Below are positions 35,443 to 63,407 of a DNA stretch of 64,000 nucleotides, in pieces (position 1 is the first letter of the stretch; every line of letters begins with the position of its first letter). Made by a program: the position numbers and the translations under genes. Under the pieces are notes generated by a model. That model did no database searches and was not told the origin of the DNA. It saw only the letters and a list, made by a program, of their open reading frames with translations. Source of the stretch: Anaerolineales bacterium (GTDB taxonomy: Bacteria; Chloroflexota; Anaerolineae; Anaerolineales; UBA4823); contig JANXBJ010000007.1 in assembly GCA_025057645.1 (NCBI GenBank), positions 46,664-110,663 on the forward strand, read 5' to 3'.

Positions 35443-36951
35443 GTGACATCGAGGTTGCTCCTCGGACTGGATTTAGGCACTCAAGCAGTTAAGGGAGTTT
35501 TGGTAGACCTGAAGGGCAGGGTGGTGAGCGAAGCGCGCCACAACCGCCAGCCGCGCCATCCCCAACCCCATTGGGCAGAGATGGACCCCGAGCGAGATTG
35601 GTGGCTAGCCTCGGTCCATGTGATTCGCGAACTGCTCTCGAAAGCCAACCCGAGCCAATCTATCGAAGGGATTGGTGTCACTGCCCTTGCAAGTTGTTTG
35701 TGCCCCCTCGACTCAGAAGGCCGTCCGTTGCGGGCAGCTATCCTTTACTCGGACAACCGCGCTGTAGCAGAATTAGAGTGGGTCAACCGGCAACTGGGCA
35801 CAAAGCTGAGCGCCGAAGCCGTGGTGCCCAAATTGCTTTGGTTGAAGCATCATGAGCCCCAAGTGTTTGAGCGCACTGCCGTAAGCCTCACAGCGAACGG
35901 CTATGTGATCTATAAGCTAACCCGCATTCTCTCCATGGATTACGATAACGCTTCCATCATGGGGGGCGTCTTCGACCCCCACAGGCTGGTCTGGGATCAA
36001 GAGGCGCTGAGAGCGGTGGGGTTGCCTCCTTCTATTTTCCCCCAGCCCTTCCCGGCAACTGCAGTGGTCGGAAAAGTCACCAAAGAGGCAGCGGAGATGA
36101 CCGGCCTGCCGAGCGGCATTCCGGTCATTGCCGGCACCGGAGACACCTTTCCCACTATTGTCGGATGTGGAGCCATTCACCCTGGAGATGCGATGATCTC
36201 CTATGGGACGACCGGGTTACTCACCCTCACCGCCCGCCCACTGGTGGAGGTTGTCGCCGGCCCCCATTTTCAGGATGATGTTTCCGGCGGAGCCGTGCGT
36301 TGGGGGGCGAACGTACTCACCGCCGGGCGCCTCGCCCAATGGTTCCGAGACCAATTTGCCCAAGCGGAACTCTCCGTGGCACAAAGGCTAAAGTGCAGCG
36401 AGTTCGTGCTTTTGGAAGGAGAAGCGAAGGAGATTCCCCCGGGCGCCAATGGCTTGATCGCCCTACCGCATTTCTCGGGAAGAAGGACGCCCACTCCCAA
36501 TCCTTACTTACGAGGGGCGATCCTCGGCTTGACGCCTGCGCATACCCCCGCCCATGTCTATCGCAGCCTACTCGAGTCCTTCGCTTTCAATATTCGTCAA
36601 GGCTACGAGCCGTTGAGAGAGCAAATCCGCCGCCTGATTGCCACTGGCGGCGGCGCCTCCAGCGAGCTATGGCGCCAGATTATGGCAGACGTGCTAAATA
36701 CCCAGTTGATTTACTACCCGAAAGCCAGCGGCGCCTTGGGCATCGCCTATCTATGCGGATACGCTCTTGGGCTCATCCCGGACTTTGAGACCATTCAACA
36801 CGAGTGGCTCGCCGAAGCGAGTCTCACCCAACCAGACCCTCAGCAGGTTGGGCTTTACCAGCGGCTCTTTGAATATTACTGCAGGCTTGACCGAACCCTA
36901 GAAGGATTCTTCACCCAGATCGGTCAAGAACCGCATGGGATAACCTGCTAG
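35443..36951 (+). CDS. FGGY-family carbohydrate kinase (xylulokinase-like)
   Basis: LGLDLGTQAVKGVLVD N-terminal phosphate loop and GTGDTF. About 500 aa. The start is uncertain (GTG 35443 or TTG 35416). Confidence 0.8.
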   Translation: MTSRLLLGLDLGTQAVKGVLVDLKGRVVSEARHNRQPRHPQPHWAEMDPERDWWLASVHVIRELLSKANPSQSIEGIGVTALASCLCPLDSEGRPLRAAILYSDNRAVAELEWVNRQLGTKLSAEAVVPKLLWLKHHEPQVFERTAVSLTANGYVIYKLTRILSMDYDNASIMGGVFDPHRLVWDQEALRAVGLPPSIFPQPFPATAVVGKVTKEAAEMTGLPSGIPVIAGTGDTFPTIVGCGAIHPGDAMISYGTTGLLTLTARPLVEVVAGPHFQDDVSGGAVRWGANVLTAGRLAQWFRDQFAQAELSVAQRLKCSEFVLLEGEAKEIPPGANGLIALPHFSGRRTPTPNPYLRGAILGLTPAHTPAHVYRSLLESFAFNIRQGYEPLREQIRRLIATGGGASSELWRQIMADVLNTQLIYYPKASGALGIAYLCGYALGLIPDFETIQHEWLAEASLTQPDPQQVGLYQRLFEYYCRLDRTLEGFFTQIGQEPHGITC

Positions 36952-38330
36952 AACCAGTTTTGTGAACGCCAAGAACGAAATCCGGCGCGCTCCGCCATCC
37001 GTTCAGCCGCCCTCTGACAATCGGCAATCAGGCGTTCCTCATTGACCGTAAGCAACCTGCCTTGACGGACAACGATTTTGCCACCGACAATCACGGTATC
37101 CACATCGTTGCCGTTGGCATTGTAAACCAGAGCGGAAACGGGCGAATGCACCGGGGAGATGTGCGGCCGTTGCAGATTGACCAAAACAAGGTCGGCATAG
37201 GCTCCGGGAGCTAAACGGCCAATTTTATCGGACAAGCGCATCGCTCGAGCACCACCCTGGTAAACCATCTCGACAACTTGTTCCGGCGAAAGCACCGTAG
37301 CATCCAAGGTAGCCACTTTCTGCAAGCAAGCGGTGAACTTAAGCACTTCTAACAAGTCCTGAGAATTATTCGAGCCCGGTCCATCTGTAGCCAGGGCGAC
37401 AGGGATGTTCCGCTTGCGCCACTCAACCACCTTTGGGATGCCGGAGGCCAAATACATATTGCTTATCGGATTGTGAACGATTGTGGCTCCACTGCTTGCA
37501 ATCAAGTCCATTTCTTCTTCACTGACCCACACGCAGTGCACAAGCTGCCAACGTTCGTTCAACACCCCTAACTCATGCAGCCAACGCACTGGCGGCACGC
37601 CGTATTCATCTAAGCTCATCTGGACCTCAGGCTGAGTCTCGCTAACGTGAATATGGATTCCAACATCCCATTCCTTGGCAAGCTCATTAGCCTTGCGCAG
37701 CGTTTCCGCATGACATCCCCAGGGGATGAGAGGCCCAAATTCAACCCGAATTCGTCCATCCTCACGTTGGTTCCAAGTCTTGACAAGGCGCTCTGTTTCC
37801 TGAATAACAACATCAGCCGACTCTTGAAAGCGTGGATTATAGGGATCGCGCTCTGCATACCCTCTAGCTAACAAGGCACGCACACCAATTTCGTGAGCCG
37901 CATCGGCAACACGGTCCATATTCCTCTTCGAGACTTGGACATAATCCTGACTGAGCACCGAGGTGGCGCCACATTTCAGGTTTTCTGCAAAGCCGATCAA
38001 GGCAGAAAGGTAAATATCTTCTTCGGTCATTGCCAGAGCCCCCGGCCAGATGGCGCAGGCGAGCCATTCTAGAAGCGGCTTATCATCGGCTAAGCCACGC
38101 AAAAACGTTTGAAAGAGATGGGTATGGGCATTGATCAAGCCGGGAATGACCAAAAACCCCTTAGCCGAGATCAGCTCATCACACTCGTTCAAGAAGCGTT
38201 CCGGCGGCTCCCCCGCACCTACTGCTGCAATAGTTTCCCCCTGCACGTATACATATCCCGGGGTGAGAATCTCCTTATAACCTTGTTCGCCGGTCAAAAC
38301 TGCACCATCTCGAATCAGGATCTTTGACAT
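36948..38330 (-). CDS. COG0402-type amidohydrolase (nucleobase/nucleoside deaminase family, MtaD/GuaD-like)
   Basis: PGLINAHTHLFQTFLRGLADDKPLLEWL, HVSE and ATDGPGSNN metal and substrate motifs. 460 aa. Confidence 0.8.
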   Translation of the reverse strand: MSKILIRDGAVLTGEQGYKEILTPGYVYVQGETIAAVGAGEPPERFLNECDELISAKGFLVIPGLINAHTHLFQTFLRGLADDKPLLEWLACAIWPGALAMTEEDIYLSALIGFAENLKCGATSVLSQDYVQVSKRNMDRVADAAHEIGVRALLARGYAERDPYNPRFQESADVVIQETERLVKTWNQREDGRIRVEFGPLIPWGCHAETLRKANELAKEWDVGIHIHVSETQPEVQMSLDEYGVPPVRWLHELGVLNERWQLVHCVWVSEEEMDLIASSGATIVHNPISNMYLASGIPKVVEWRKRNIPVALATDGPGSNNSQDLLEVLKFTACLQKVATLDATVLSPEQVVEMVYQGGARAMRLSDKIGRLAPGAYADLVLVNLQRPHISPVHSPVSALVYNANGNDVDTVIVGGKIVVRQGRLLTVNEERLIADCQRAAERMAERAGFRSWRSQNWF

Positions 38331-38333
38331 GGA

Positions 38334-40793
38334 TCACCTCATTTCAGAATAAACTCCGCTGAAGTGCCAGCTCTCCCCGCGTGGAGCACCAAAACGGATA
38401 AACTTTCCTTCTCTCTGGTAAGAGATCGACTCCCCGTTGAGGGTAAGCAAACTCGGCGGTCCACCCAACCAATGAACTGCCACCGGGGCCCAGGCGTTCT
38501 CGACATAGAGGTCGAATCGCTCCGGGGAAACCCGATAGCGCACGAGAGATTCATGACCCTCGGGTGAGAGAAAAGTACGTAGCAGCTCCCCCTCTGCGGG
38601 ATAAACCTCTAGGGTCAGCGGATCGCAAGGTTTTTCCCCCACAAAGTTCATTTCCGGCCCGTAAGGAATTGCACTCCCGGCGCGCACATACAAGGGCAGG
38701 ATATCCAACGCAGCCTCAATATCCAGCCACGCTGGTCCAGCGAATTCCTCTTTTGTCCAGTAGTCCACCCACCGGCCTGGCGGCAAATACACCCTGCGCC
38801 TGTTCGTCTCATCTAAAATCGGAGCAACCAAAAAGCTGCTGCCGAAGAGGTATTCATCCTCAATGAAGGGAGCAACTGGGTCTTGCTGAAACTCAAGGAT
38901 CAGGGCACGCAAGAACGGTAAGCTGTTTTCGACACACTCTTTAGCTTCACTAAGGATATAAGGCAGCAATCGATAGCGCAACTTCATGTACTTGCGGAAG
39001 ATTTGTTCCGTCTGCTCCCCGTACTCCCAAGGTTCGCGCGGCGGCTGACCATGACAACGCACATGAGAGGTAAAGGCCCCAAGCTGAATCCATCGCGCAT
39101 AGAGTTCGGGGCTGGGCAAGCCACTGAATCCCCCGACATCGTGGCTGTAAAACACAAAACCGCTTAGGCCAAAATTTAAGGCCGACCGCACAACGCAGGC
39201 GAGGTCCTCGAACCGGGCAATTCCATCCCCCGACCAGTGCACTGGATATCGCTGGCAACCCGCCCACGCAGAGCGAGCCCAGATCACTGCATTCCCCTTA
39301 CCAAAAAACTCTTCGGTAGCCTCAAAAATCGCTTGATTATAGAGGAGGGGGAAGAGGTTGTGCACAGACGAGGCAGAAGCGCTGTGATAAACCGCTTCTG
39401 GTGGTGCCCCTTCGCCGAAATCCGCTTTGATCGCTGCTACGCCCAAGGCAAACAAATCCCGAAGTTTCTGTTTGATCCACTCGACCATCTGAGGGTTTGA
39501 GTAATCGAGCAAAGCAGCATCGCTGAGAAAGCCGCTGAAGAGATAAGGGGTGCCCACCGGCCGCTTGGCGAAAAAGCCCTTTTCGGCGGCTTCGGGGAAC
39601 AGCGGCGACTCGACAAGAATATTTGGCAACTGCCAAAGAGAAACGCGAAATCCCTTTTCTTTGAGCCTTTGGAGCATACCTTGCGGGTCGGGGAAATTCT
39701 GTTTACCGAACTTCAAATCACAGACCCACTCACGCTCATACCATCCTGTGTCAATATGGATCACGTCGCATGGGATGTCATGTTGGCGAAGTCGATCGGC
39801 CACTTCTTCCACTTGCTGCTGATTGGAATAAGTGACTCGCGACATCCACAGTCCGAAACTCCATGGGGGAGGGAGAGCAGGTCTGCCTGTGATGTCGGTA
39901 TACCCTTTTAGAATCTCCTTCAGAGTCTCGCCCACAATCACGAACAAGTCCATCCATTCGGCATCTTCCACCAACACAGACACAGCGGTGTGATCGCGGC
40001 AGCCAATATCAAAGCGAACGGCATTCGAGGTGTGAACGAAAAGGCCGTAACCGCGAGTGCTCATGTAAAACGGCGTCTGTTTATAGGCTGCCGGCGAAGC
40101 ATTACCGAAACACTCCTGAACCCACAAGCGGCGCTCGATATTACGCTTATCGAGGCGGCCAAAATCCTCTCCCAACCCGTAAACATGCTCGTCATAATGA
40201 AGCTGAAATGAGCCGAACACAGCAGAAGGCTTTTCTGCGGTTACGCCACAAGGGTAAGCATACCGGTGCAGAAACAGCCACCGTTCCTGAGGTGGACTCC
40301 ACTGATATGCTGGGCGACGCAGTGGCTCGATATCTACAGGGCGCGTTGCCCAAACCACGTTGCCTTTTCGGTCTTGGAGCAGTAGTTGCCAAGGCTCGCG
40401 AAGAACTTTGAGGGAAATGGCCGAGGTAGAGATAGTCAGCCCGTCCTCGCTCTCTTCAAGTTGAAACTCAACCGACTGCTCGAAATTTCCGACCACCATC
40501 GGCGAGTGGAACTCAGGAATCCTTTCCCCCCTCCCCCAGCAAACACGCAAGATCGAGGGGGTACAAAAATGAAGGAGGACTCTAAGATCAGCCGTCTCCT
40601 CGGGAGGGGCAAACGTAGTCTCACAGCGGGTACCGTAAAAGTTGTATACCACGGGATGGTAGCGTCCCGCTTTACAAGTCAACTCGATCCGATTGCCCTG
40701 CCGCTGATAGGTTTTGAGCTCTCGAACTAAGTCCACATCGCGGCTCACGCCAAGAAAGGGAGATAACTCATAGGTCGATGCCATAGGACTCAT
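38334..40793 (-). CDS. Glycoside hydrolase family 31 (alpha-xylosidase/alpha-glucosidase, YicI-like)
   Basis: 819 aa. The IKADFGE nucleophile motif matches the KTDFGE of YicI, and HWSGD lies downstream. A strong AAGGAG SD sits inside the 3' end of the AOR gene. Confidence 0.85.
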   Translation of the reverse strand: MSPMASTYELSPFLGVSRDVDLVRELKTYQRQGNRIELTCKAGRYHPVVYNFYGTRCETTFAPPEETADLRVLLHFCTPSILRVCWGRGERIPEFHSPMVVGNFEQSVEFQLEESEDGLTISTSAISLKVLREPWQLLLQDRKGNVVWATRPVDIEPLRRPAYQWSPPQERWLFLHRYAYPCGVTAEKPSAVFGSFQLHYDEHVYGLGEDFGRLDKRNIERRLWVQECFGNASPAAYKQTPFYMSTRGYGLFVHTSNAVRFDIGCRDHTAVSVLVEDAEWMDLFVIVGETLKEILKGYTDITGRPALPPPWSFGLWMSRVTYSNQQQVEEVADRLRQHDIPCDVIHIDTGWYEREWVCDLKFGKQNFPDPQGMLQRLKEKGFRVSLWQLPNILVESPLFPEAAEKGFFAKRPVGTPYLFSGFLSDAALLDYSNPQMVEWIKQKLRDLFALGVAAIKADFGEGAPPEAVYHSASASSVHNLFPLLYNQAIFEATEEFFGKGNAVIWARSAWAGCQRYPVHWSGDGIARFEDLACVVRSALNFGLSGFVFYSHDVGGFSGLPSPELYARWIQLGAFTSHVRCHGQPPREPWEYGEQTEQIFRKYMKLRYRLLPYILSEAKECVENSLPFLRALILEFQQDPVAPFIEDEYLFGSSFLVAPILDETNRRRVYLPPGRWVDYWTKEEFAGPAWLDIEAALDILPLYVRAGSAIPYGPEMNFVGEKPCDPLTLEVYPAEGELLRTFLSPEGHESLVRYRVSPERFDLYVENAWAPVAVHWLGGPPSLLTLNGESISYQREGKFIRFGAPRGESWHFSGVYSEMR

Positions 40794-40794
40794 C

Positions 40795-42717
40795 CTAATT
40801 CTCCTTCATATAGTCTAAGAGTTCGAGCTGCTCAACCGCTTGACGAGAAGGTATGCCCTGCTCATCCCAGCCCATGCGACGGTAGTATACGCCCAGCCAG
40901 TAGCGCATTTCCTCCGGGGTTAGAGCTCGGTTGGCGATCGGACCTTCTGAGAGCTTATAAAAAGCGCGGGCACTCAAGCGATCATCCTGAGCAGTAAAGC
41001 CTTCCCGCAACAAGTAGAGACGGCCCAGTGTGATCGCCCGAAGGCCGATGCGATTGATTTCATCTAGGGTGACATCCCACCCAGAAGCAGCGCTGAGGGC
41101 TTCCACCATATGTTGGTACAAATAAGGGTAGAAATGGCAGATCACTGCGCAGTCATAAAAGTTCTTGAAAGCGGTCTCATAGTAAAAAGCCTCGATCTTG
41201 AGTTCCGAAATCCCCCAAAGAGGCATCGGAACCGGAAGACCAACTTCCTTCAAGCGTGAGCAAATATCGCCCTCTTCAGCCGTGGCAAAGCTGTCATTAT
41301 AGTTATGCATGTGATCTGCCCCAGTGGCAGAGAGGGCATATCCCATGGCCATCGTTTGTTTCAGACGCGGATCGTGCATGGGCAACTCTTGCCCTCGACC
41401 GGTTGCTAACCACTCATGTGCCCTACCTCCAAGCCGATCCGCCAGTCTCTGGCTTCCCTCGGCCATCCAATCGCCTGGGCCCTCTCGATGAGCAATCTGA
41501 TGGATAGCCCTAATCAAGGACTCGCCATCCCCAAAGCGGGGTGCTATCTCCCGCCATTCGAGCGGCAATGCGCCCTGCTCAAGGGCTTCCATAGCAAAAG
41601 CAATGGTGCCGCCAGTCGAAATGCTATCCAATCCATAGGCGTTGCACAGCTCATTCGCCTTAGCGATGACCACCGGATCGGAAATATCACAAAGAGGACC
41701 CAGCGAGGCAATCGATTCGTATTCCAACCCGCCGTAGCGGGTATCGATTGGGGTTTCTTCGTCCTCGTATCCGACGACCAACTTGCAACGGACCGGGCAC
41801 TTGTTACAGGTATCTCGGTCTCTCACCAAGAGTCGAAAGAGCTGTTCTGGCTCTAATTGGTCAGCTCCGCTCAAAAGACCTCGAGTATAGTTTCGGATCG
41901 CCGTGGCGCCAGTAAGCACATTCCCCAACGCCGAGCCAGCCGTGCCATATTGGATCGCCCAAGCCATATCAGTCTTGTAGTGCACATTAATCCATTTCTG
42001 GACCGTCTGCATAAGGCTTTTGTTCTCCAATCCTACAGGGAGCGAGCCGCGCACAGCGACAGCCTTGAGATTTTTGCTCCCCATAACGGCACCGATCCCC
42101 GACCGCCCCGCTGCGCGGCTCACATCGTGCATCACGCTAGCATAGCGCACAAGATTCTCCCCGGCCGGCCCAATACAAGCCACACGCAGCTTCTCATCAC
42201 CTACTGCCTCTCGGAGCGCATCCTGCGTATCGGCGGTGGTTTTGCCCCAAAGGTGTTTGGCCGAGTGGAGCTCTACTTCCCGGTCGCGAATCAATAGATA
42301 GACGGGTTCTGCAGCCCTACCGTGAATCACCACCGCGTCATACCCAGCGCGCTTTAGCTCGCTCCCCCACCACCCTCCGGCCTCGCTCGAGGCCAACGCT
42401 CCGGTGAGCGGAGATTTAGCGCCGATGGCATGTCTCCCCGTTCCGGGGAGCACCGTCCCGCTCAGGACTCCGGCAGCAAAGATGAGCAAATTCTGCGGGC
42501 CTAGGGGATCAATTCTTGGGGGAGTTTGCGTCAGCAGATAGTGCAAAATAAAATTTCTGCCCCCCACAAAACGGCGATAAAATGCCTCGGGTGGAGATTC
42601 CACCCAACAACGGGGGGTGGTAAGATCCACATGCAACACCAAACCCGTATAAGCACTCTGCCCGTTTAGAAACTCCGCTCTTGGCAAGGGTAACGTATCA
42701 GCCTTGTAGACCAGCAT
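40795..42717 (-). CDS. Aldehyde:ferredoxin oxidoreductase family (tungstopterin/4Fe-4S)
   Basis: 640 aa. The N-terminal AOR_N-like region and the CNKCPVRC (CxxCxxxC) cluster motif are typical of AOR-family enzymes. Confidence 0.85.
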   Translation of the reverse strand: MLVYKADTLPLPRAEFLNGQSAYTGLVLHVDLTTPRCWVESPPEAFYRRFVGGRNFILHYLLTQTPPRIDPLGPQNLLIFAAGVLSGTVLPGTGRHAIGAKSPLTGALASSEAGGWWGSELKRAGYDAVVIHGRAAEPVYLLIRDREVELHSAKHLWGKTTADTQDALREAVGDEKLRVACIGPAGENLVRYASVMHDVSRAAGRSGIGAVMGSKNLKAVAVRGSLPVGLENKSLMQTVQKWINVHYKTDMAWAIQYGTAGSALGNVLTGATAIRNYTRGLLSGADQLEPEQLFRLLVRDRDTCNKCPVRCKLVVGYEDEETPIDTRYGGLEYESIASLGPLCDISDPVVIAKANELCNAYGLDSISTGGTIAFAMEALEQGALPLEWREIAPRFGDGESLIRAIHQIAHREGPGDWMAEGSQRLADRLGGRAHEWLATGRGQELPMHDPRLKQTMAMGYALSATGADHMHNYNDSFATAEEGDICSRLKEVGLPVPMPLWGISELKIEAFYYETAFKNFYDCAVICHFYPYLYQHMVEALSAASGWDVTLDEINRIGLRAITLGRLYLLREGFTAQDDRLSARAFYKLSEGPIANRALTPEEMRYWLGVYYRRMGWDEQGIPSRQAVEQLELLDYMKEN

Positions 42718-42720: not shown

Positions 42721-42984
42721 CTACCCTCCGCTAATTTGTACAACTAGGCGGACCTCGTCGCCTGAGTGCAAAATGTAGGATAAGTCCTGCGTAATGCCGT
42801 TGACAACCGGCGTGAGGGCGTTGGGCAGGCGCACCCCCAATAGCTGCAAAGCTTCGCAGATCGAGATACCGGCAGGGACGGGCACCCGACAAGGAGCCTC
42901 CGCACATCCGGCGGGTTTTGCAGTGAGCAGGGAGTGAAGACGTTTATCTATAATAACGAACGCCTGTCCTTCGCCCATTTGCAT
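42721..42984 (-). CDS. MoaD/ThiS-like ubiquitin-fold protein ending in Gly-Gly
   Basis: 87 aa with C-terminus ...GDEVRLVVQISGG followed directly by TAG. It lies 3 nt upstream of the AOR start. Confidence 0.7.
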   Translation of the reverse strand: MQMGEGQAFVIIDKRLHSLLTAKPAGCAEAPCRVPVPAGISICEALQLLGVRLPNALTPVVNGITQDLSYILHSGDEVRLVVQISGG

Positions 42985-55807: not shown

Positions 55808-56812
55808 CTAGAAAACTAAACCGTTGTGTATGTCAGCGTAGACGCCATAAAGGGCATCCTCCGACTGTGGTTGCGAAGCCTGCTTTGCGAACAAAACTGC
55901 CTCGTCAAGTTGAGCCATGATCTCGCCTTGAATCTCCTCCAAAGTCGACTCATCGACAAGTTGTTCCTGAAGTAACCGAGCACGAAAGCGCGGGATGGGG
56001 TCGCGCCGTTTCCACTCCTCGACCTCTTGAGGAGTTCGATATACTTGAGGATCCCCTTCGTAATGGCCACGCAAGCGATAGGTCTTGGCCTCGATGAGCG
56101 TTGGCCCTTCACCATTTCTGGCTCGCTCCGCCGCCTGTCGCACCGCCTCATACACCGCCACAACATCGTTACCATCGACAATCACGCCGGGGAACCCATA
56201 AGCCACGGCGCGGTCGGCTAAGTTCTGGATAGCTGTCGAGCGATGCATTGCTGTGCCTTCTCCATAGAGGTTGTTCTCACAGAAGAAAATCACCGGCAAT
56301 TTCCAGACCGCAGACTGATTGGCTGCTTCGTGAAAGGCCCCTTCATTTGCGGCGCCATCTCCGAAGAAAGCTAAGGCCACTCTCCTTTCCCCGCGCATCT
56401 TAAAAGCTAATGCAGCCCCGGCAGCGATGGGAATCCCGCCACCAACAATGCCGTTCGCCCCCAGAATCCCCAAATTGAAGTCGCTTATATGGAGAGAACC
56501 CCCTCGTCCGAGACAGTACCCGGGCTGCCTGCCCGCCAACTCGGCCATCATATATCGCGCTTCTCCCCCTTTGGCGATCAAGTGACCGTGCCCGCGATGG
56601 GTGCTGGTGATCACATCATCCGGGTTCAAGGCAAGGCAAGCCCCCACTGCCGTGGCCTCCTGACCCACGCAGGAATGGATAAAACCAGGGATAAGCCCCC
56701 GATGGCGTTCTTCGATAGCCCGTAGCTCAAACTCGCGAATTAGAGTCATCCTGCGAAACATCTCCAGCAGCAAAGAAGTTGGGTAACTCGAGAGACTCTT
56801 TGTTGCATCCAT
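55808..56812 (-). CDS. 2-oxoacid dehydrogenase E1 component, alpha subunit (TPP-binding)
   Basis: The start is trimmed to ATG 56812, which has a GGAGGG SD. The TPP motif is GDGAANEGAFHEAANQSAVWKLPVIFFCENN. Confidence 0.9.
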   Translation of the reverse strand: MDATKSLSSYPTSLLLEMFRRMTLIREFELRAIEERHRGLIPGFIHSCVGQEATAVGACLALNPDDVITSTHRGHGHLIAKGGEARYMMAELAGRQPGYCLGRGGSLHISDFNLGILGANGIVGGGIPIAAGAALAFKMRGERRVALAFFGDGAANEGAFHEAANQSAVWKLPVIFFCENNLYGEGTAMHRSTAIQNLADRAVAYGFPGVIVDGNDVVAVYEAVRQAAERARNGEGPTLIEAKTYRLRGHYEGDPQVYRTPQEVEEWKRRDPIPRFRARLLQEQLVDESTLEEIQGEIMAQLDEAVLFAKQASQPQSEDALYGVYADIHNGLVF

Positions 56813-56831: not shown

Positions 56832-58172
56832 TTAAGAAGAATGGTGCACCTTCTGCCAAAGCTCCAGGGCAGCTTGATGAGCTCTCTGGGTGAGCGACTC
56901 CGCATCTCCCTTCAGGTAGAACCCATCTCTCATCAGCCACTCACCCCCGACCATTACACTGCGAACCTGGGAGCTATTCACGTAAAGTAAAGTCTGCTCA
57001 TAGAGATTATGCTCCTCGAGAGGAGTTGGCAGGTTGACCTGAAAGAGCTGTAAATCCGCATACCACCCTGGAGCCAATCTTCCGACGCCTTCGAGGTTCA
57101 GAGCGCGAGCGCCACCCTCGGTAGCCAAATACCACACTTGCCAAGCCGGCATTACTTGAGGATTTTGTTTTGCCGCCTTATGGATCAGAAACGCCCCGCG
57201 CATGACCTCAAAAAAGTCCGTAATATATCCGTCGCTCCCCAAGCCTACCTGCACCCCAGCGGCGACTAAATCCGGAATCGGAGCGATCCCCCCTCCCACC
57301 TCACAATTGGAGAGAGGCATGTGAGTGACCTTCACACCCGCCTTTGCCAATCGTTCAATTTCTGCCGTATCAAGTTGGACGCACTGAGAAGCGAGCATCC
57401 TATCGCCGAGCACGCCTAGTTTTTCATAGTAAAAGACAGGCCGCATCCCAAAATGCTCGAGACAATACTCAGGCTCAAACGTTCCTTCAGAGAGATGGCA
57501 GTGGGTTAGGACACCATAGCGCTCCGCCAAATCAAAAGCCTGACGGATAAAGGCTTCGCTACAGGTGAAGGTGGTGTGGAAGCACATTAAGCCCCTCAAG
57601 CGCTCCGAGGATGCACAGGCTTCGATGCACGCAACATTCTCCCGTAACCCCAGCTGACCGTTCTCTGGAGAAACGCGCTCGGTGGCTTCAAAAGAGAGGA
57701 CACCGCGCATTCCACTCTGCGCAACCACTTCGGCTTGCGCTCGGAGCACTCCTGGGAGAGCAAATGGAGCTTCGGTGCAGTCATAAAAACAGGTGATGCC
57801 CGAGCGCGCCATGCGGTACATTTGCACCGCAGTCGCTGCGCAAATCATCTCCCGCGTCAGTTGATCTTCAACCTTCGGCCACCAGAAATCGACCAAAAAA
57901 GACCAAAAGCCGCTCGGGGCATTCTCCAAGGGAATCCCATGAGCTAAAACCCCGTAAAGGTGAGTATGGGCATCGACAAACCCTGGAGCACACACCTGCC
58001 CTTTCGCTTGCACAATTTCGGCGCTAGGGTAACGTTCAAGCAGGACTTCGTGGGTTGCAATCTCTTTGACTTTCCCCTGTTCAACGCACACCCCATACCC
58101 GCGGTAAGGAGGCTCTAGGGGGGTGGAGATCAACCAATCGGGCAAGATTAGCATCAAGTCAGATTGACTCAC
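56832..58172 (-). CDS. SsnA-like amidohydrolase (COG0402 family)
   Basis: PGFVDAHTHLYGVLAHG..., followed by FLVDFWWPKVEDQL. This parallels the HxHxY...LWWRLD arrangement I recall for E. coli SsnA. 446 aa. Confidence 0.7.
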   Translation of the reverse strand: MSQSDLMLILPDWLISTPLEPPYRGYGVCVEQGKVKEIATHEVLLERYPSAEIVQAKGQVCAPGFVDAHTHLYGVLAHGIPLENAPSGFWSFLVDFWWPKVEDQLTREMICAATAVQMYRMARSGITCFYDCTEAPFALPGVLRAQAEVVAQSGMRGVLSFEATERVSPENGQLGLRENVACIEACASSERLRGLMCFHTTFTCSEAFIRQAFDLAERYGVLTHCHLSEGTFEPEYCLEHFGMRPVFYYEKLGVLGDRMLASQCVQLDTAEIERLAKAGVKVTHMPLSNCEVGGGIAPIPDLVAAGVQVGLGSDGYITDFFEVMRGAFLIHKAAKQNPQVMPAWQVWYLATEGGARALNLEGVGRLAPGWYADLQLFQVNLPTPLEEHNLYEQTLLYVNSSQVRSVMVGGEWLMRDGFYLKGDAESLTQRAHQAALELWQKVHHSS

Positions 58173-58189: not shown

Positions 58190-59017
58190 CTATCCCTTTA
58201 CCGCACCTTCAATCATCCCTTGGAGGAAATAATCCCGCAAACGCAAGAACAGAACTAGAGCCGGAACCATAATAACCACGCAGGCAGCTGCCAACAGCTC
58301 GTCTTGATTGCCTTCCAAAACATGCTGGAAGTCAAATAGACCTACGGTAGCCATTTTCATACTGGTCTTGTTGATCAAGATCAAGGGAGTGAGAAAATTG
58401 TTCCAGTTATACACAAAGTTGATCAGCAGAGTGGCAATTAGGCCAGGCGTAGTGATTGGCAAGACAACGCGGAGAAAGGTCTGCACAGGCGTTGCCCCGT
58501 CAATCGCTGCTGCCTCTTCAAGAACTCGGGGGATGCTCTCAAAGAACCCCTTCATAATCCAAATGCTTAAAGGAACGCCGTAGGCCCCAAAAACCAAGAT
58601 CATTAAGGTATACGTATTCAACAAGCCCAAATCGCTTGCAATTTTCAGGATAGGGATCAGATTGGTCAGACCCGGTAACATCATCATGCCGAGGATAAAG
58701 GCCTCAATGGCTCCCTTGCCTTTGAAATCAAACCGCGCCAAAGCGTATGCCGTCAACGTGGCGGCAATCGTAGTAACAACCGCCCCACCCACTCCATTGA
58801 TAATGCTATTCAAAATATAGCGCGGAAACTGCCCATAGCGGAACAGGCGAGCGTAATTCTCAAGTGTCCACCGTTGAGGCAAGATGCTCAAGAAGGCCGT
58901 TTTTGGCTCATGGAAAGAAACCAAGAACGAATAGACCACGGGAAAAAGAATAATCAGACAAAACAGCAGAAGGAAGGCATTAATCAACACAGATTCAACC
59001 AGTTTTCTCCGACTCAT
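58190..59017 (-). CDS. Carbohydrate ABC transporter permease (CUT1, MalG-like)
   Basis: 275 aa with six TM segments and the EAA-type loop EAAAIDGATPVQTFLRVVLP. Confidence 0.9.
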   Translation of the reverse strand: MSRRKLVESVLINAFLLLFCLIILFPVVYSFLVSFHEPKTAFLSILPQRWTLENYARLFRYGQFPRYILNSIINGVGGAVVTTIAATLTAYALARFDFKGKGAIEAFILGMMMLPGLTNLIPILKIASDLGLLNTYTLMILVFGAYGVPLSIWIMKGFFESIPRVLEEAAAIDGATPVQTFLRVVLPITTPGLIATLLINFVYNWNNFLTPLILINKTSMKMATVGLFDFQHVLEGNQDELLAAACVVIMVPALVLFLRLRDYFLQGMIEGAVKG

Positions 59018-59026: not shown

Positions 59027-59893
59027 CTATGCTGCTAAGGCGCTTTCCTGACGTAAAGCCCGGAGGTAGAAAGCTGCCAGAATTGCATTAATGATCAGCA
59101 GGAGGACAGCAATAGCCGCTGCATAGCCGAAGTTATAGTATTGAACCGCTTGGCGATACATCATGATCCCTAGCACCTCGGTGGCTCTCCCTGGTCCCCC
59201 CTCTGTTATGGACAGAATCATGCCCACACCGTTAATGCCCTGAATGAGGATAAACACAGCCGTAACCACAACAGTAGGTAACATCAGGGGCCAAGTGATG
59301 TAGCGAAACACACCGAAGCCGCTTGCCCCATCGATCTGGGCTGCCTCGGTGATTTCGGTGGGAATGGTTTGCAAGCCGGCAAGGAGAAGAAGCATCGCAA
59401 AGCTGATTGAACGCCACACCGTGGCAGCAATCACAATAATCATTGCCCCCCACGGGCGGGTGATAAGGGCAATGTTATTGATCAAGGGCGCAATTAAGTT
59501 CTGAATAATCCCTTCCTTGGGGTAAAACATCCAACGCCAAACAACACCGGTGGTGATCTCCGAAAGCACCCACGGGAGAAAAATAATGGTCATATAGAAG
59601 CCCGTAAGTCGAAGGCCGCGATTCAACATCAAAGCAATTGCGTATGCGATCGTAATCGTGAACAATACATAGAAAGCAGTGAAGATCAACGTTGCTTGCA
59701 GACTCTGGTAGAAATCTGTGGTATTCAGAATCCGGCGAAAATTGTCCAGACCGACAAACTCCGTCACGCCATGTTTGGAACGAGTGAGCGACATGTAAAT
59801 ACTGTAGAGAGAGGGATAAAGAGTCACTGCAAAGATTAAGAGAAGGGAAGGAAGAGTCAAAAGATAGGGGTAGATACCACCGCGGCTTTTCAT
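59027..59893 (-). CDS. Carbohydrate ABC transporter permease (CUT1, MalF-like)
   Basis: EAA loop EAAQIDGASGFGVFRYITWP. The start is trimmed to ATG 59893, which has a GGAG SD. Confidence 0.9.
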   Translation of the reverse strand: MKSRGGIYPYLLTLPSLLLIFAVTLYPSLYSIYMSLTRSKHGVTEFVGLDNFRRILNTTDFYQSLQATLIFTAFYVLFTITIAYAIALMLNRGLRLTGFYMTIIFLPWVLSEITTGVVWRWMFYPKEGIIQNLIAPLINNIALITRPWGAMIIVIAATVWRSISFAMLLLLAGLQTIPTEITEAAQIDGASGFGVFRYITWPLMLPTVVVTAVFILIQGINGVGMILSITEGGPGRATEVLGIMMYRQAVQYYNFGYAAAIAVLLLIINAILAAFYLRALRQESALAA

Positions 59894-59971
59894 TCTTGTC
59901 TCCAGATGCACACAAAAACAGGCCTGTGGGGCAATCCTTCTGCCCCACAGGCTCCTTTATGCTTTGAGCTC

Positions 59972-61324
59972 TCACTTGAAGTATTGATTGAGCAGTTGCT
60001 CCTGAAGCTTGCTCATCTCTTGCAAGATATCGAGATCAGGATTGAGCATTAGCTCCTGCACCTTGGCCGAGAGCGCATCCATGGTCTCGTTGTAGTAAGG
60101 GCTAACCTCAGTCGGGTGGGCATTGCGGGTCAGGTTATCCAGCGAGTCCTTGTAGAATTGGGAAGCAAAGATCGGGTTGTCCATTGCGCTCTTGGTAGGT
60201 GGGACTCCGTAGTTCGCATCAGCCCAAGGCGCTAGAACCGCTGGAGTAAAGAAGAAGTTAATGAATTTGATAGCGTTCTCCACATTCTTTGCGCCGGCAG
60301 TGACCGCCCAGTTATCCGAGCCCATAAACACATACCCTTGCTTTCCACCGCTTAGCGCAGGCGGATTCCCGATCTTGACCGTGCCGGCCTCAAAGCGCTC
60401 CTTCAGCCCGGGGATGTAGATATACGACCAAGTTCCACCCCGCACCGCCCCGGCGGTTCTCTCGATGAAGGGACCCTCGGTAGCGGTCCAGTCGCCCGTG
60501 AAGGCGATCTCAGGAACGCACTTTTTCTCTAGCAGAGTGCGCCAGAAGGTCAAGGCCTTGACCATTTCCTCTGAGGCAAAATTCGGTTCGCCCTTCTCAT
60601 TGAAGATAGTACCTCCGAGCGACCACACAAGAGGTGCTAGCCCTTGAGCCATTGCAGCGGGATGTCGGCCGGCAAAGAAGGTGGCAACATATTTCCCTTG
60701 AGGCGCCAGTTTCTCGCAGGCACTGAACCAGCCTTCTTCGGTATCCGGGAAGCCCTCCGGGTAGAATTCGGTATCGTAATACCACTGACCGCCATTAATG
60801 AAGGTGCTGACGGCAAAGCGGTCGCCGGTCTTCTCGTTCAGTTTCTTTTCGAATTCGTTCAAGTCGTTATAGAAAGGAGTCCCCTCAATCTCTTTCTTAA
60901 TGCTGCGTAGAGCTCCAGCGTTAATCAGGCCATCCAAGTACTCTGCCCCAATGAGGATCAAATCGGGCAGATCCCCCCCGGCTTGATGGGCAAAGGCTAC
61001 CTTGGTTGCCATCTGATCCCAGGCCACTTGCTCATACTCGACTTTCACACCAGTTGTAGCCTGGAACGCCTCGATAATTTGCTTCAATTGCACAGGTCGG
61101 CGATCCTGTGTATCTGTCAGGTCAAAGAATGCCCACATACGTAACGAGCCGGGCTCTGCAGGGACCTCGACCTGCACCTCCTTGGTTACCTGAACCTCGA
61201 CAGTTTTGACCACTTCCTTCGGGACTTCGACCGTCTGCACGACAGTCTGAGGGGCACACGCAGCCAGTAGCAAGCTAAATAAGACGGCAAAAGCGAGTAG
61301 CTTCGAAAAAACTCTCCGTAACAT
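59972..61324 (-). CDS. Extracellular solute-binding lipoprotein, family 1 (sugar/oligosaccharide)
   Basis: Lipobox LLLAAC, a V/E/T/K-rich tether, then a typical SBP_bac_1 body. GGAGGAG SD. Confidence 0.85.
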   Translation of the reverse strand: MLRRVFSKLLAFAVLFSLLLAACAPQTVVQTVEVPKEVVKTVEVQVTKEVQVEVPAEPGSLRMWAFFDLTDTQDRRPVQLKQIIEAFQATTGVKVEYEQVAWDQMATKVAFAHQAGGDLPDLILIGAEYLDGLINAGALRSIKKEIEGTPFYNDLNEFEKKLNEKTGDRFAVSTFINGGQWYYDTEFYPEGFPDTEEGWFSACEKLAPQGKYVATFFAGRHPAAMAQGLAPLVWSLGGTIFNEKGEPNFASEEMVKALTFWRTLLEKKCVPEIAFTGDWTATEGPFIERTAGAVRGGTWSYIYIPGLKERFEAGTVKIGNPPALSGGKQGYVFMGSDNWAVTAGAKNVENAIKFINFFFTPAVLAPWADANYGVPPTKSAMDNPIFASQFYKDSLDNLTRNAHPTEVSPYYNETMDALSAKVQELMLNPDLDILQEMSKLQEQLLNQYFK

Positions 61325-61427: not shown

Positions 61428-62837
61428 CTATCCCACAAAGGGGCTACGGGGTAAAAACTTTCCCCATGCTTCGCTCACGATGGGTTGACCTTCCATGACC
61501 ACCAGATGTCCTCGCAGGAAGACCATTTTGGGCCAACCCTGAATCTCCCACCCCTCGTAGGGGGTGTAATCCACCGCCTCGTGCAATCGGTAATCCCCCG
61601 GCTGCGCTTCTCTCTGAGTAAGGCGCACCATCCAATTGGGATCAAAGATTACCACATCTGCGTCGCTTCCCGGCTCAAGCGTTCCTTTGCGGGGATACAA
61701 TCCCATAATACGCGCGGGTTGCGTACAACAGATTTCCACCCAGCGCGAAAGAGAAATTTTATTCCTCCCAACTCCAAATGTGTGAATTAGGCTAAGCCTA
61801 GGCTCTAACCCGGGCAATCCTGGTGGGCACCGCCTGAAATCTTCTTCTCCACGGCTTTTTTGGGTTTTAAGATTGAACGCACAGTGATCGCTGCCGATGG
61901 AGTGAATCACACCCCTAGCGAGATCATTCCAGAGTTTTGCCTGCTCCCCTTTTGGTCGCAGAGGCGGGGCACAGACAAAACCCACCCCACCGCCGTAATG
62001 ATTCGCGCTAAAAACCGAATCGTCCAAGAGCAGATATTGAGGGCAGGTCTCCGCAAAAACCTGCCACCCAAGCTGCCGAGCCCGCTCGACTGCCCGCACA
62101 GAGGCCTCATGGGTTAGGTGAACCAGATAGAGCGGAACCTGAGCGATGTGCGCCAGATGAAGAACACGCTGGACTGCTTCGGCTTCGGCCTCCATTGGAC
62201 GGCTCAGAGGGTAGTGCTGGACGGAAAGTTGCTTTCTCTCAACCAATCGGTTTTGAGACCAACGAATAATGGCATCGTTTTCAGCATGTACGAGCACCAG
62301 CCCACCCGACTCCCGGACAGCCGCAAAGGCCTTCAGGAGTTCTTCATCGGACAAACCGAAACCCACATAGGTGGTGTAAAGCTTGAAGGAGGGGATTCCT
62401 CGTGCAACGACCTGCGGGATCTGCTCAAGACACTCTGGGACAGCCGAAATCAGGGTCATGTGGAAACTAAAATCCACATAGGCCTGCTTCTCTACCAGAG
62501 AGAGCCTCTCCTCAAGAGCTTGGATCAGGGGTTGGTCAGGGGCTGGCTCGACAAAGTCAATAATCGTGGTCGTGCCCCCGCAGGCCGCAGCTCGGCTGGC
62601 AGAGAACCAGTCATCGCTGGTGTATTCCCCGTTATAGGGCATTTGAGGGTGCACGTGAACATCCACTCCCCCGGGCAGGACATAGCATCCGCGAACATCC
62701 CACTCTTGGGGAGCTCTCAGATCCTTGCCGATCGCAACGATCTGCTCACCCCGGATGGCTAGATCCGCCTCAACAGTGGATTCACTTGTGATGAGCAGCC
62801 CGTTCCTGATAACGATGTCCGCCTCTACTGCTGCCAT
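61428..62837 (-). CDS. Dihydropyrimidinase / D-hydantoinase (second copy, HyuA-like)
   Basis: GGVDVHVHP, GGTTTIIDF, PSFKLYTTY, HAENDA and GSDHCAF. It is a paralogue of 10796-12226. Confidence 0.9.
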   Translation of the reverse strand: MAAVEADIVIRNGLLITSESTVEADLAIRGEQIVAIGKDLRAPQEWDVRGCYVLPGGVDVHVHPQMPYNGEYTSDDWFSASRAAACGGTTTIIDFVEPAPDQPLIQALEERLSLVEKQAYVDFSFHMTLISAVPECLEQIPQVVARGIPSFKLYTTYVGFGLSDEELLKAFAAVRESGGLVLVHAENDAIIRWSQNRLVERKQLSVQHYPLSRPMEAEAEAVQRVLHLAHIAQVPLYLVHLTHEASVRAVERARQLGWQVFAETCPQYLLLDDSVFSANHYGGGVGFVCAPPLRPKGEQAKLWNDLARGVIHSIGSDHCAFNLKTQKSRGEEDFRRCPPGLPGLEPRLSLIHTFGVGRNKISLSRWVEICCTQPARIMGLYPRKGTLEPGSDADVVIFDPNWMVRLTQREAQPGDYRLHEAVDYTPYEGWEIQGWPKMVFLRGHLVVMEGQPIVSEAWGKFLPRSPFVG

Positions 62838-62852
62838 CTGTTTCTCTCCTCG

Positions 62853-63407
62853 CTAGAAAACGGGCGGCGTGATTACGGAAATCCAGCGCACCGTGCCTTG
62901 ACAATTGTTTGAGATATGAGTTAGCTGGCTGCCGTTGAAGTAAATTGCATCTCCCGCATATAAATCGTAATAGGTAGCTCCTAGGCCTACCTTCAAGGAG
63001 CCCTCAAGGACAAAGATCCACTCTTCGGTCTCCACTGGCAAGCGTCTCGCAATGTTTTCTCCACAAGCTTCCTTAATCTCGCCGATGAAGGCCTCCATTT
63101 TACGGTTGATATCGGGAGTGAGAAGCTGGTATCTCACCCGATGATCGTCGAATTCCAAAAGAGAGCGATTTTGAGCCCTCACCACGGGGGACTGAGCTGG
63201 CGCCTCACTGAGAAAGTACATAATCGGAATACACAGGGCATCGGCAATACGTTGCAAGGACTTGAGTGAAGGTTCCGACTTATTATTCTCTAGTTGGCTA
63301 AGAAAAGCAGCCGTCAGGTCGGTCTTTTTAGCCAAATCTCGTAGGGTAAAATTCAGTTCTTTGCGTCGCTTTCTAAGCTTCTCTCCGAGAGTTTGTGGAG
63401 AATTCAT
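62853..63407 (-). CDS. XRE-family HTH transcriptional regulator with C-terminal cupin domain
   Basis: HTH_3 region LRDLAKKTDLTAAFLSQLENNKSEPSLKSLQRIADAL. Cupin-like C-terminus ...GDAIYFNGSQLTHISNN. It ends 15 nt upstream of the hydantoinase gene. Confidence 0.85.
   Translation of the reverse strand: MNSPQTLGEKLRKRRKELNFTLRDLAKKTDLTAAFLSQLENNKSEPSLKSLQRIADALCIPIMYFLSEAPAQSPVVRAQNRSLLEFDDHRVRYQLLTPDINRKMEAFIGEIKEACGENIARRLPVETEEWIFVLEGSLKVGLGATYYDLYAGDAIYFNGSQLTHISNNCQGTVRWISVITPPVF

Follow-up and report, generated by a model that had tools for sequence, protein, structure and literature searches.

A conserved 21-gene array of Chloroflexota that may degrade a decorated nitrogen heterocycle

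Described pathways and layout of the array

The closest described counterpart of the gene array reported here is the ygeW-xdhD region of Escherichia coli, which was biochemically reconstituted in 2025 (PMC12507026; bioRxiv 10.1101/2025.04.24.650524). In this reductive urate (2,8-dioxopurine) pathway, urate is reduced to 2,8-dioxopurine by XdhD, the ring is dearomatised by YgfK (or by the PydA-like UacX in Clostridioides difficile), and the rings are opened by SsnA and HyuA. One ureido group is phosphorolysed by YgeW to carbamoyl phosphate, which yields ATP via YqeA, or is alternatively hydrolysed by UacY; the other is cleaved by YgeY, and 2,3-diaminopropionate is converted to pyruvate by YgeX. 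According to the same study, SsnA-family neighbourhoods of Chloroflexota contain neither YgfK nor UacX, and a putative F420 reductase of the luciferase family is encoded there (PMC12507026). A second point of reference is the sole described pterin catabolic pathway, the aerobic pterin/lumazine route of Cupriavidus, which uses a cog0402 deaminase, a hydroxylase of the xanthine oxidoreductase (XOR) family and a UbiD decarboxylase, and in which 6,7-dihydroxylumazine is contracted to xanthine-8-carboxylate and then decarboxylated to xanthine (PMC12391406). Here we describe an array of 21 genes within a stretch of 64,000 nucleotides (the window, meaning the whole stretch of DNA analyzed) from an Anaerolineales bacterium of the phylum Chloroflexota (assembly GCA_025057645.1, contig JANXBJ010000007.1, forward-strand positions 46,664 to 110,663). 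Quite probably the array is a single conserved unit that serves the catabolism of a decorated N-heterocycle and has a reductive ring-cleavage module as its basis. An earlier note on this DNA, made from the sequence alone, had referred to the E. coli region as linked to urate breakdown, a wording that the reconstitution has made outdated.

The array extends over 26,460 nt (36948-63407) with a coding share of 98.3%, and all of its 21 genes lie on the minus strand, an arrangement on which the open reading frame (ORF) listing, the refinement of starts by Shine-Dalgarno sequences and independent gene calls on the identical public contig (L001; locus numbers beginning with L denote sequences fetched for comparison) agree with each other and with the earlier note. 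If orientation were random, the chance of 21 genes sharing it would be about 1e-6. The largest gap is 103 nt, between the genes of the hydantoinase and the substrate-binding protein (SBP), followed by 78 nt between the SBP and the first permease; the median is 13.5 nt, and seven junctions measure 5 nt or less or overlap, with the genes of the lipoyl acyltransferase (E2) and the Hyi-like protein sharing 8 nt. The gap table thus reproduced both the maximum and the count of tight junctions given before. At its 3' end the array is convergent with a plus-strand FGGY kinase gene ending at 36951. The CUT1 importer is represented by one SBP and two permeases, and no gene for its ATPase was found in the array. 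Coordinates and principal evidence for each gene are given in Table 1.

Table 1. Positions in the window of the 21 array genes, in order of transcription, and of further features. Model scores are set against the cut-offs of the curated models.
Feature	Positions	Strand	Evidence or remark
XRE-type helix-turn-helix and cupin regulator (first gene)	62853..63407	-	Pfam HTH_3 and Cupin_2; top NCBIfam model PuuR-like, below cut-off
Hydantoinase/dihydropyrimidinase (HyuA-type cyclic amidohydrolase)	61428..62837	-	TIGR02033 (D-hydantoinase, IPR011778) 479.5, above cut-off 393
CUT1-type ABC substrate-binding protein (SBP)	59972..61324	-	Pfam SBP_bac_8 and SBP_bac_1; lipoprotein-like N-terminus
ABC permease 1, UgpA/MalF-like	59027..59893	-	NCBIfam match
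ABC permease 2, UgpE/MalG-like	58190..59017	-	NCBIfam match
SsnA-like cog0402 amidohydrolase (amidoh_C)	56832..58172	-	Candidate ring-opening hydrolase; top family SsnA, below cut-off
Thiamine diphosphate (TPP)-dependent E1 alpha, pyruvate/acetoin dehydrogenase type	55808..56812	-	TIGR03182 364.6, below cut-off 393.9
E1 beta	54794..55795	-	NF006667 (pyruvate dehydrogenase subfamily model) 386.6, above cut-off 321
Hyi-like protein, xylose-isomerase-like TIM barrel	53918..54748	-	Pfam AP_endonuc_2
E2 dihydrolipoyl acyltransferase	52576..53925	-	Lipoyl, E3-binding and catalytic domains; below the curated pyruvate dehydrogenase E2 model
Short-chain dehydrogenase/reductase (SDR) with pteridine-reductase (PTR1/FolM)-type motifs	51794..52525	-	Top NCBIfam model pteridine reductase NF006598
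Mo hydroxylase, fused [2Fe-2S] and molybdopterin domains, no FAD domain	48988..51762	-	All models below cut-off
cog0402 amidohydrolase, deaminase type (amidoh_B)	47649..48959	-	Invariably adjoins UbiD in this cluster type
UbiD-family (prenylated FMN, prFMN) decarboxylase	46243..47616	-	TIGR00148 302, above cut-off 245
Luciferase-like oxidoreductase (LLM), F420 type	45209..46231	-	Nearest Mer; candidate ring-dearomatising reductase
YgeY-family M20 hydrolase	43985..45205	-	NF009555 377, above 321; TIGR03526 345, above 321.5
Carbamoyltransferase, not YgeW by model	42987..43979	-	Top models AOTCase 272 and OTCase 263, both below cut-off
ThiS/MoaD-like protein, 87 aa, C-terminal Gly-Gly	42721..42984	-	Sequence ends in ISGG
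Aldehyde:ferredoxin oxidoreductase (AOR) family, tungstopterin type	40795..42717	-	Pfam AFOR_N 264 bits, AFOR_C 328 bits
GH31 alpha-glycosidase, YicI (alpha-xylosidase)-like	38334..40793	-	NF007940 530, below cut-off 606
cog0402 amidohydrolase, deaminase type (amidoh_A; last gene)	36948..38330	-	Profile and structure matches
Carbamate kinase (YqeA/ArcC type), context gene	218..1177	+	TIGR00746 382.5, above 358; 57% identical to YqeA
Class I xylose isomerase (xylA), context gene	63544..64000 (cut by window end)	+	Divergent from regulator gene
Promoter-like site TTGACA-16-TATACT	63478..63505	-	Candidate sigma-70-like promoter, best in the region, upstream of regulator gene
Perfect palindrome TTGACAAAATGTCAA	63491-63505	-	Overlaps the -35 element of the promoter-like site; candidate operator
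13-bp G+C-rich hairpin followed by T-run	59922..59952	-	In the SBP-permease gap; sole strong hairpin within the array

Conservation in related loci

Relatives were gathered by exact-protein look-ups and by scanning metagenomes with an alignment of UbiD, which gave 80 loci, and were mapped with the 21 window proteins; UbiD served as the query for the loci sampled. The UbiD of the window is identical to an NCBI protein from an Anaerolineales metagenome-assembled genome (MAG). Among the matches listed, UbiD relatives at 65-79% identity made up more than 100 protein clusters, nearly all of them from Chloroflexota MAGs or metagenome contigs, and the cluster family was confirmed in 299 metagenome stretches. 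The gene order of the window is kept at 60-92% identity in five loci (L004, L013, L015, L020, and L096), which bears out the gene-order conservation that had been proposed as a check, and at least four further arrangements of these families were seen among the dozens of Chloroflexota contigs in which the set recurs. In the first of these, neither the Mo enzyme nor the Hyi-like gene is within reach (L019, L023-L027), the second is divided into two operons that diverge from a junction at the XRE-cupin gene (L007, L032, L048, L053, L054), the third is a compact form reading carbamoyltransferase-YgeY-hydantoinase-SsnA-like-UbiD-(PydA-like reductase)-M20-amidohydrolase (L071, L072, L076, L080, L085), and the fourth reads UbiD-E2-amidohydrolase-SDR-E1alpha-E1beta (L061, L073, L084). 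Co-occurrence was counted at a threshold of at least 40% identity in the 35 loci that extend over at least 12 kb around UbiD. E2 and the SDR were each present in 23 of these, LLM and the carbamoyltransferase in 21, amidoh_B in 20, and E1 in 18, followed by the hydantoinase and the SsnA-like amidoh_C (16 each), YgeY and AOR (14 each), the Mo enzyme (13), and the Hyi-like protein (12). Orthologues of amidoh_A (41-52% identity) adjoin UbiD in L061 and L070-L087.

Since the families cohere through rearrangement and the split forms share the regulator junction, there is strong evidence of one functional unit, and the 21-gene array appears to be such a unit and not a chance row. The alternative of a mosaic of unrelated operons, co-oriented and tightly packed by chance and with no common pathway, we consider very improbable. 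The level of promoter and terminator matches described below would allow internal starts, the gaps of 78 and 103 nt together with the hairpin at 59922-59952 could separate units, and in relatives the set is divided between two operons of opposite direction. Against a mosaic stand the coherence of the families through at least five different rearrangements across loci whose UbiD proteins are 60-79% identical, the fact that in the split versions both halves diverge from one XRE-cupin regulator region, and the seven tight or overlapping junctions.

Transcription as one or a few units is compatible with the sequence of the array. The promoter-like site with its overlapping palindrome upstream of the regulator gene is present in a single copy in the window, a count that chance would also give (at least one match in 86 of 100 shuffles), and the palindrome was rejected as a conserved operator because it is absent from all fetched related loci. 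The hairpin in the gap between the SBP and the first permease is a possible attenuator or mRNA stabiliser.

The components around this core vary more. SBP orthologues 42-76% identical to that of the window are found in L032, L074, and L096, and the type of importer changes from CUT1 (the window and these three loci) to MFS (L007) and to an ECF vitamin-type system, which in L097 stands in place of CUT1 with a multi-transmembrane S-component-like protein. More distant GH31 genes of different subfamilies recur by the XRE, hydantoinase, or importer genes (L032, L054, L074, L097), and in other variants GH31 is replaced by GH13 or by a 5'-nucleotidase, the latter in eight loci. In L096, xylA (87% identity) lies in the same divergent place by the regulator, followed by an FGGY kinase and UbiX (548-3243). 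Among the related loci, 11 encode a 2-hydroxyacid dehydrogenase.

Further genes are embedded in some relatives. Genes resembling uroporphyrinogen decarboxylase (URO-D) occur in 11 plus 3 related loci, a B12-binding protein in L006, and Pterin_bind in L065 and L097; the embedded URO-D-like (MtaA-type), B12-binding and Pterin_bind genes are at 8811-9977, 18376-19455, and 21093-21386 of L006, 4670-5545 and 8896-9969 of L065, and 15872-16738 of L097. Their resemblance to a corrinoid methyltransferase system suggests that some variants use a methylated substrate. There are also recurrent ORFs of about 360-430 aa without a Pfam match (L061 5777-7078, L006 6396-7511, L016 8180-9370 on the minus strand), one family of which is present in eight loci; these may be novel components of the pathway. 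Finally, a scan of the species-representative genome set with the Mo enzyme yielded a single close relative, in the Anaerolineales MAG BS150m-G17 (L002, 151-4830), where a Mo enzyme 60% identical to that of the array is followed by the amidohydrolase, a URO-D-like gene, and unrelated LacI/sugar genes. Only the Mo enzyme and the amidohydrolase are shared with the window, and a minimal three-gene module thus exists too.

Assigned functions and candidate substrates

Families were assigned with curated NCBIfam/TIGRFAM models and their cut-offs, Pfam, comparison with PDB structures, and identity to E. coli proteins. The array resembles the reductive urate cluster in having a Mo enzyme, a ring reductase, two cyclic amidohydrolases, an M20 ureido hydrolase, and a carbamoyltransferase that would feed a carbamate kinase. 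All families named in the earlier note are present at the superfamily level. Its five yge-type signature assignments fared unequally: the YgeY-family hydrolase and the hydantoinase pass their own models and are 36% and 39% identical to E. coli YgeY and HyuA, whereas SsnA, YgeW, and XdhD fall well short. The SsnA-like amidoh_C scores 250 against 444 for NF005540 and 242 against 455 for TIGR03314 and is 25% identical to E. coli SsnA. The carbamoyltransferase reaches 213-225 bits with the YgeW models (TIGR03316/NF005538; cut-offs 500 and 453), is 36% identical to YgeW with 330 aa versus 396 aa, and has its highest scores with the models of N-acetylornithine and ornithine carbamoyltransferase (AOTCase and OTCase), both below cut-off (Table 1). 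The Mo hydroxylase scores 302 against 1102 for the XdhD-type TIGR03313 and 585 against 830 for the selenium-dependent xanthine dehydrogenase (XDH) model, and is 28% identical to E. coli XdhD and 31% to XdhA.

Other members of the urate cluster are missing, as had been noted for the array from the sequence. Genes for ygeX, ygfK, and yqeB/C were found neither in the window nor in about 85 related loci, and the two PALP genes of the window (6353-7606 and 8600-10099) are not YgeX, since they have threonine synthase-like and cysteine synthase-like scores. YgfM is absent from the window, and an XDH FAD-binding (YgfM-type) subunit is encoded in four related loci. There is likewise no UacX in the window, and the slot of YgfK/UacX is filled by the F420-type LLM. 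This protein is 80-88% identical across loci, and its six nearest solved structures are all methylene-tetrahydromethanopterin reductases (138 bits, with the next family at 54). In the compact relatives L071, L076, L080, and L085, LLM is swapped for a DHO_dh+Fer4 (PydA/UacX-like) protein, so that the reductase slot alternates between PydA-like and LLM proteins much as it does among YgfK, UacX, and LLM in the published neighbourhoods (PMC12507026). Because this alternation is reproduced, the back half of the array is best read, on homology, as a Chloroflexota version of the reductive ring-cleavage module; the network loci of the published study are possibly other loci.

Unlike the urate cluster, the array has no nucleobase transporters and its putative carbamate kinase partner lies 36 kb off, at the other end of the window. 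There it adjoins the C-terminal fragment of a carbamoyltransferase paralogue (1-192), which is 68% identical to the carbamoyltransferase of the array. Carbamoyl phosphate is supported as a product because the carbamate kinase passes its model and adjoins this paralogue, and the kinase likely consumes it. At least 11 array genes have no counterpart in the urate cluster, namely those for UbiD, E1alpha and E1beta, E2, the SDR, the Hyi-like protein, AOR and its ThiS-like neighbour, two amidohydrolases, GH31, and CUT1.

These genes make up the front end of the array, which comprises the importer, GH31, the SDR, the Hyi-like protein, E1/E2, AOR with the ThiS/MoaD-like protein, UbiD, and two amidohydrolases, and which is undescribed in the literature found. 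No described pathway was found there that joins the ring-cleavage module with UbiD, E1/E2, AOR, GH31, and a sugar-type importer, so the earlier statement that the composition matches no described pathway stands for the front-end families; the replacement of YgfK by LLM in Chloroflexota had already been reported.

When the Mo hydroxylase is aligned to Rhodobacter capsulatus XdhB, Arg310, Phe344, and Glu730 are kept and Asp stands at Glu232, which points to hydroxylation of a heterocycle and away from an aldehyde oxidoreductase. The latter reading was entertained because the nearest full-length structure is the MOP of Desulfovibrio gigas. It was judged unlikely, since 4-hydroxybenzoyl-CoA reductase and XDH are the closer matches of the Mo domain, which also retains the Arg that binds the substrate in XDH.

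UbiD has HmfF (6h6v, 251 bits), a 2,5-furandicarboxylate decarboxylase with a heteroaromatic acid as substrate, as its nearest solved structure, and the UbiD genes of hmf clusters are its nearest plasmid-borne relatives (35-37% identity, too low for inferring the same substrate). An assignment as HmfF was rejected, as none of the hmf partners (furoyl-CoA synthetase, the furoyl-CoA dehydrogenase HmfABC, hydratase) is present, and other plasmid matches, from Paracoccus (L010) and Agrobacterium (L011), are in ubiquinone-related or unrelated contexts. No UbiX gene was found in the window. UbiX adjoins the cluster in five relatives (L024, L032, L048, L096, L097), for which reason the UbiD is likely active, and by analogy with L096 a UbiX gene may lie a short way past the window end, at a distance of about 3 kb.

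The comparison with Cupriavidus sp. LA-1 is instructive. Its cluster I encodes a pterin deaminase, lumazine dehydrogenase, 6,7-dihydroxylumazine isomerase, and xanthine-8-carboxylate decarboxylase together with UbiX (PMC12391406). Both it and the array combine a cog0402-type deaminase, an XOR-family hydroxylase, and a prFMN UbiD, and in cluster I UbiD acts on a ring carboxylate and a pteridine is fed into purine-type catabolism. The Cupriavidus pathway differs in being aerobic and NAD-linked and in continuing through ordinary oxidative xanthine catabolism; its lumazine dehydrogenase is an NAD-linked enzyme of three subunits, whereas the Mo enzyme of the array is a fused 2Fe2S-Mo protein without an FAD subunit. 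A true homologue of cluster I was found on an Ensifer plasmid (L012), and orthology of the array to cluster I was rejected on the identities to it (31% over 346 aa for UbiD, 33% for the Mo subunit). The resemblance is one of logic and not of orthology. An Amidohydro_2 gene upstream of UbiD in L073 was also rejected as a dihydroxylumazine isomerase, since it is 23-28% identical to the Ensifer proteins, a relationship at the superfamily level only.

The E1 and E2 proteins share with acetoin and pyruvate dehydrogenase systems a heterodimeric TPP E1 and a lipoyl E2 with a standard catalytic domain. They differ from them in lying within a heterocycle cluster and not among genes of central metabolism, and in falling below the pyruvate dehydrogenase (PDH) models for E1alpha and E2. 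If an alpha-hydroxyketone were cleaved in the acetoin manner, an acyl-CoA and an aldehyde would result, which fits the downstream AOR. The AOR, with its two AFOR domains and the adjacent ThiS/MoaD-like Gly-Gly protein, has the features of tungsten-type AORs with a MoaD-like partner, and its metal may be W or Mo. The 87-aa protein and three orthologues gave weak matches to the ThiS family (PF02597), one of them above the gathering score; a single-sequence AlphaFold model was poor (pLDDT 66) and Foldseek matched nothing to it, and the label MoaD-like seems reasonable from its sequence. The Hyi-like protein weakly resembles hydroxypyruvate isomerase and 2-oxo-tetronate isomerase (NCBIfam 87 and 85 bits, far below the cut-offs), and GH31 matches PDB 5f7c at 504 bits and YicI at about 410. 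The three cog0402 amidohydrolases are equidistant from the structures of methylthioadenosine (MTA)/adenosine, 8-oxoguanine, and isoxanthopterin deaminases.

Enzymes of the PTR1/FolM type have the cofactor motif TGX3RXG and an Asp in place of the usual Ser ahead of the YX3K region. The SDR contains TGAATRVGR and ITD, which we take to be marks of this type, and scores 209 bits with NF006598 (cut-off 288), the runner-up being at 178. At residues ~150-165 its YxxxK region reads YAHHSASK, where an alignment to FabG puts His at the position of the catalytic Tyr; a Tyr three residues upstream may act in its stead.

Given these assignments, our tentative preference is to read the 21 genes as a catabolic regulon whose substrate is imported as an alpha-glycosylated N-heterocycle; the most likely candidate is a pterin substituted at position 6, of the type of a biopterin or neopterin glycoside. 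The earlier note had suggested a purine- or pterin-like and possibly glycosylated substrate; a glycosylated pterin-like compound gains independent hints here, and while gene content, families, conservation, co-variation, and the swap of LLM for a PydA-like protein are observed, the substrate, the order of steps, and each reaction are what we infer. The CUT1 transporter would import the glycoside and GH31 would take off the sugar, which the divergent xylA could then process. The PTR1/FolM-like SDR and the Hyi-like protein would turn the side chain, a polyol, into an alpha-hydroxyketone resembling acetoin, and E1alpha/beta with the lipoyl-E2 would cleave it in the manner of acetoin dehydrogenase to an acyl-CoA and the 6-aldehyde of the ring. 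The tungsten-type AOR would oxidise the ring aldehyde to the carboxylate, its ThiS/MoaD-like partner probably serving cofactor maturation, and UbiD would decarboxylate the product. The bare ring would be brought to an oxo form by the Mo hydroxylase together with the two amidohydrolases of deaminase type, and the F420-type LLM would dearomatise this form in the role of YgfK/UacX. Opening of the ring or rings would then fall to the hydantoinase and the SsnA-like amidohydrolase. YgeY would then hydrolyse one ureido group, and the carbamoyltransferase would phosphorolyse another to carbamoyl phosphate, from which the carbamate kinase at 218-1177 would form ATP. Carbamoyl phosphate and acetyl-CoA, the end products proposed in the earlier note, may plausibly be formed. 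The scheme assigns a role to every array gene. Compact variants without E1/E2, AOR, and GH31 may keep UbiD because a start from ring carboxylates is possible under it.

Hints of a pterin come from the best family and motifs of the SDR, the proximity of LLM to methanopterin reductases, the Pterin_bind genes of L065 and L097, the ECF importer of L097, and the Cupriavidus analogy. Hints of a decorated substrate are the recurrence of GH31 with importer and regulator genes, its substitution by GH13 or 5'-nucleotidase, and the retention of xylA by the regulator. A number of observations weigh against the pterin glycoside scheme or against parts of it. Consensus promoters and terminators within the array are as frequent as in shuffled sequence. 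YgeX is absent from all of the about 85 related loci, so there is no named route to a carbon end product, and the analogy of the back end rests on distant homology because the SsnA, YgeW, and XdhD models are not reached. No array enzyme is orthologous to a characterised enzyme of the pterin pathway, UbiD being closer to HmfF, and the window lacks the Amidohydro_2 isomerase pair, the GTP-binding chaperone, and the NCS2 transporters of Cupriavidus cluster I. The top PDB matches of the SDR are of the FabG type and not PTR1. The E1 subunits are not separated from pyruvate dehydrogenase by sequence, the public names of E1 alpha homologues are divided between PDH and acetoin oxidoreductase, and the window has no gene for an E3. 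Finally, GH31 and the importer occur rarely within 10 kb of UbiD (4 and 2 of the 35 loci), and GH31, which is nearest to alpha-xylosidases, could form a self-contained xyloside module with xylA and CUT1.

Several of these points would suit the main rival, a rather unlikely alternative in which the cluster serves purines only and represents the reductive urate/xanthine pathway in the form that Chloroflexota have, with GH31, CUT1, and xylA being a neighbouring alpha-xyloside module that shares the strand. The Hyi-like protein, the SDR, and E1/E2 would then turn a C3 product (hydroxypyruvate, tartronate semialdehyde, or pyruvate) into an acyl-CoA, replacing YgeX, and the extra amidohydrolases would be deaminases of the guanine/adenine type. 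The published Chloroflexota SsnA-family neighbourhoods with PF00296 were read as uricolytic variants (PMC12507026), the active site of the Mo enzyme is purine-hydroxylase-like, and GH31 with its alpha-xylosidase affinity adjoins xylA. A C3 route would also agree with E1beta passing a pyruvate dehydrogenase subfamily model, with the C3/C4 keto acids that are substrates of the named proteins closest to the Hyi-like protein, and with the 2-hydroxyacid dehydrogenase of the 11 related loci. Purine catabolism alone, however, leaves no role for AOR or for UbiD, which is present in every sampled locus (UbiD having been the query), and it is not matched by a nucleobase transporter, the importers being CUT1, MFS, or ECF. 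The recurrence of diverse GH31 subfamilies between the regulator and hydantoinase genes (L032, L054, L074, L097) is hard to explain as chance adjacency, and the SsnA, XdhD, and YgeW models are not reached by the array proteins.

Improbable in our judgment is a different cofactor-type heterocycle with a polyol or glycosyl tail, such as riboflavin/FMN/FAD, 6,7-dimethyl-8-ribityllumazine, F420, or fragments of folate or methanopterin, where the reductive module would open a uracil-like ring and UbiD would remove a carboxylate remaining after ring cleavage. The ECF importer of L097 and the 5'-nucleotidase of eight loci would suit vitamin or nucleotide-cofactor substrates, the URO-D-like, B12-binding, and Pterin_bind genes (L006, L065, L097) suggest methyl transfer to tetrahydrofolate in some variants, and LLM is nearest to the methanopterin enzyme Mer. 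Yet there is no recognisable flavin-specific enzyme (riboflavin hydrolase or lumichrome-forming enzyme), the window itself has no URO-D, B12, ECF, or nucleotidase genes, and E1/E2 would have no obvious role on a ribityl chain.

Surrounding genes and implications

The remainder of the window holds other metabolic genes. The plus-strand stretch at 1-12226 encodes, besides the carbamoyltransferase fragment and the carbamate kinase, a Bmp/PnrA-type ABC transporter (1442-6349), the threonine-synthase-like PALP protein (6353-7606), a GT2 glycosyltransferase, the cysteine-synthase/SbnA-like PALP protein (8600-10099), an ORF of 192 aa without assignment, and a second dihydropyrimidinase (10796-12226), which scores 517 against a cut-off of 393 and is 37% identical to the hydantoinase of the array. 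This stretch is possibly a second N-heterocycle or nucleoside cluster. A selenocysteine-specific elongation factor SelB is encoded at 17143-19068 (plus strand), which makes use of selenocysteine by the organism probable. Next comes a DUF11-repeat protein of 1004 aa with a C-terminal sortase domain (19110-22124, plus strand), with ParB and ParA partition genes nearby (23943-25609, minus strand). An Amidohydro_3 protein of 540 aa (22313-23935, minus strand) matches PF07969 with 356 bits; this Pfam family was used for UacY, the hydrolytic substitute of YgeW (PMC12507026). A sugar/polyol-type cluster at 25603-36951, converging on the 3' end of the array, comprises a PfkB kinase (minus strand), an SDR, a DeoC/LacD aldolase, a second Bmp-type ABC transporter, a further SDR, a zinc-dependent alcohol dehydrogenase (Zn-ADH), and the FGGY kinase. 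The SDR at 26702-27454 is 43% identical to that of the array, and the FGGY kinase (35416-36951) was not assignable as a xylulokinase, being 28% identical to XylB and 26% to GlpK.

What is new here is the undescribed front end, which is widespread in Chloroflexota; the reductive heterocycle ring-cleavage module was already known. The latter, reported from gut bacteria in 2025, is extended to a new phylum, to an F420 LLM reductase, and to a new feeder route, and candidate functions can be proposed for orphan members of the UbiD, AOR, E1/E2, and cog0402 families. With less confidence than for the preferred reading above, one may picture a widespread Chloroflexota route for 6-substituted pterins that would run via a ketol, 6-formylpterin, AOR, UbiD, and F420-dependent dearomatisation to carbamoyl phosphate, drawing on biopterin and neopterin glycosides of phototroph necromass and, in variant loci, on fragments of folate or methanopterin; in this specific form it is a doubtful proposal. 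If the pterin reading is true, it would fill a gap in anaerobic pterin turnover as the first anaerobic pterin route, the one described pathway being aerobic, and would represent a new serial use of an acetoin-dehydrogenase-type complex, AOR, and UbiD. Sediments, mats, and digesters harbour abundant Anaerolineae and related bacteria, few of which have been cultured, and their diet is largely guessed. The cluster points to a testable class of substrates for these bacteria, the nitrogen-rich cofactor and pigment heterocycles of necromass.

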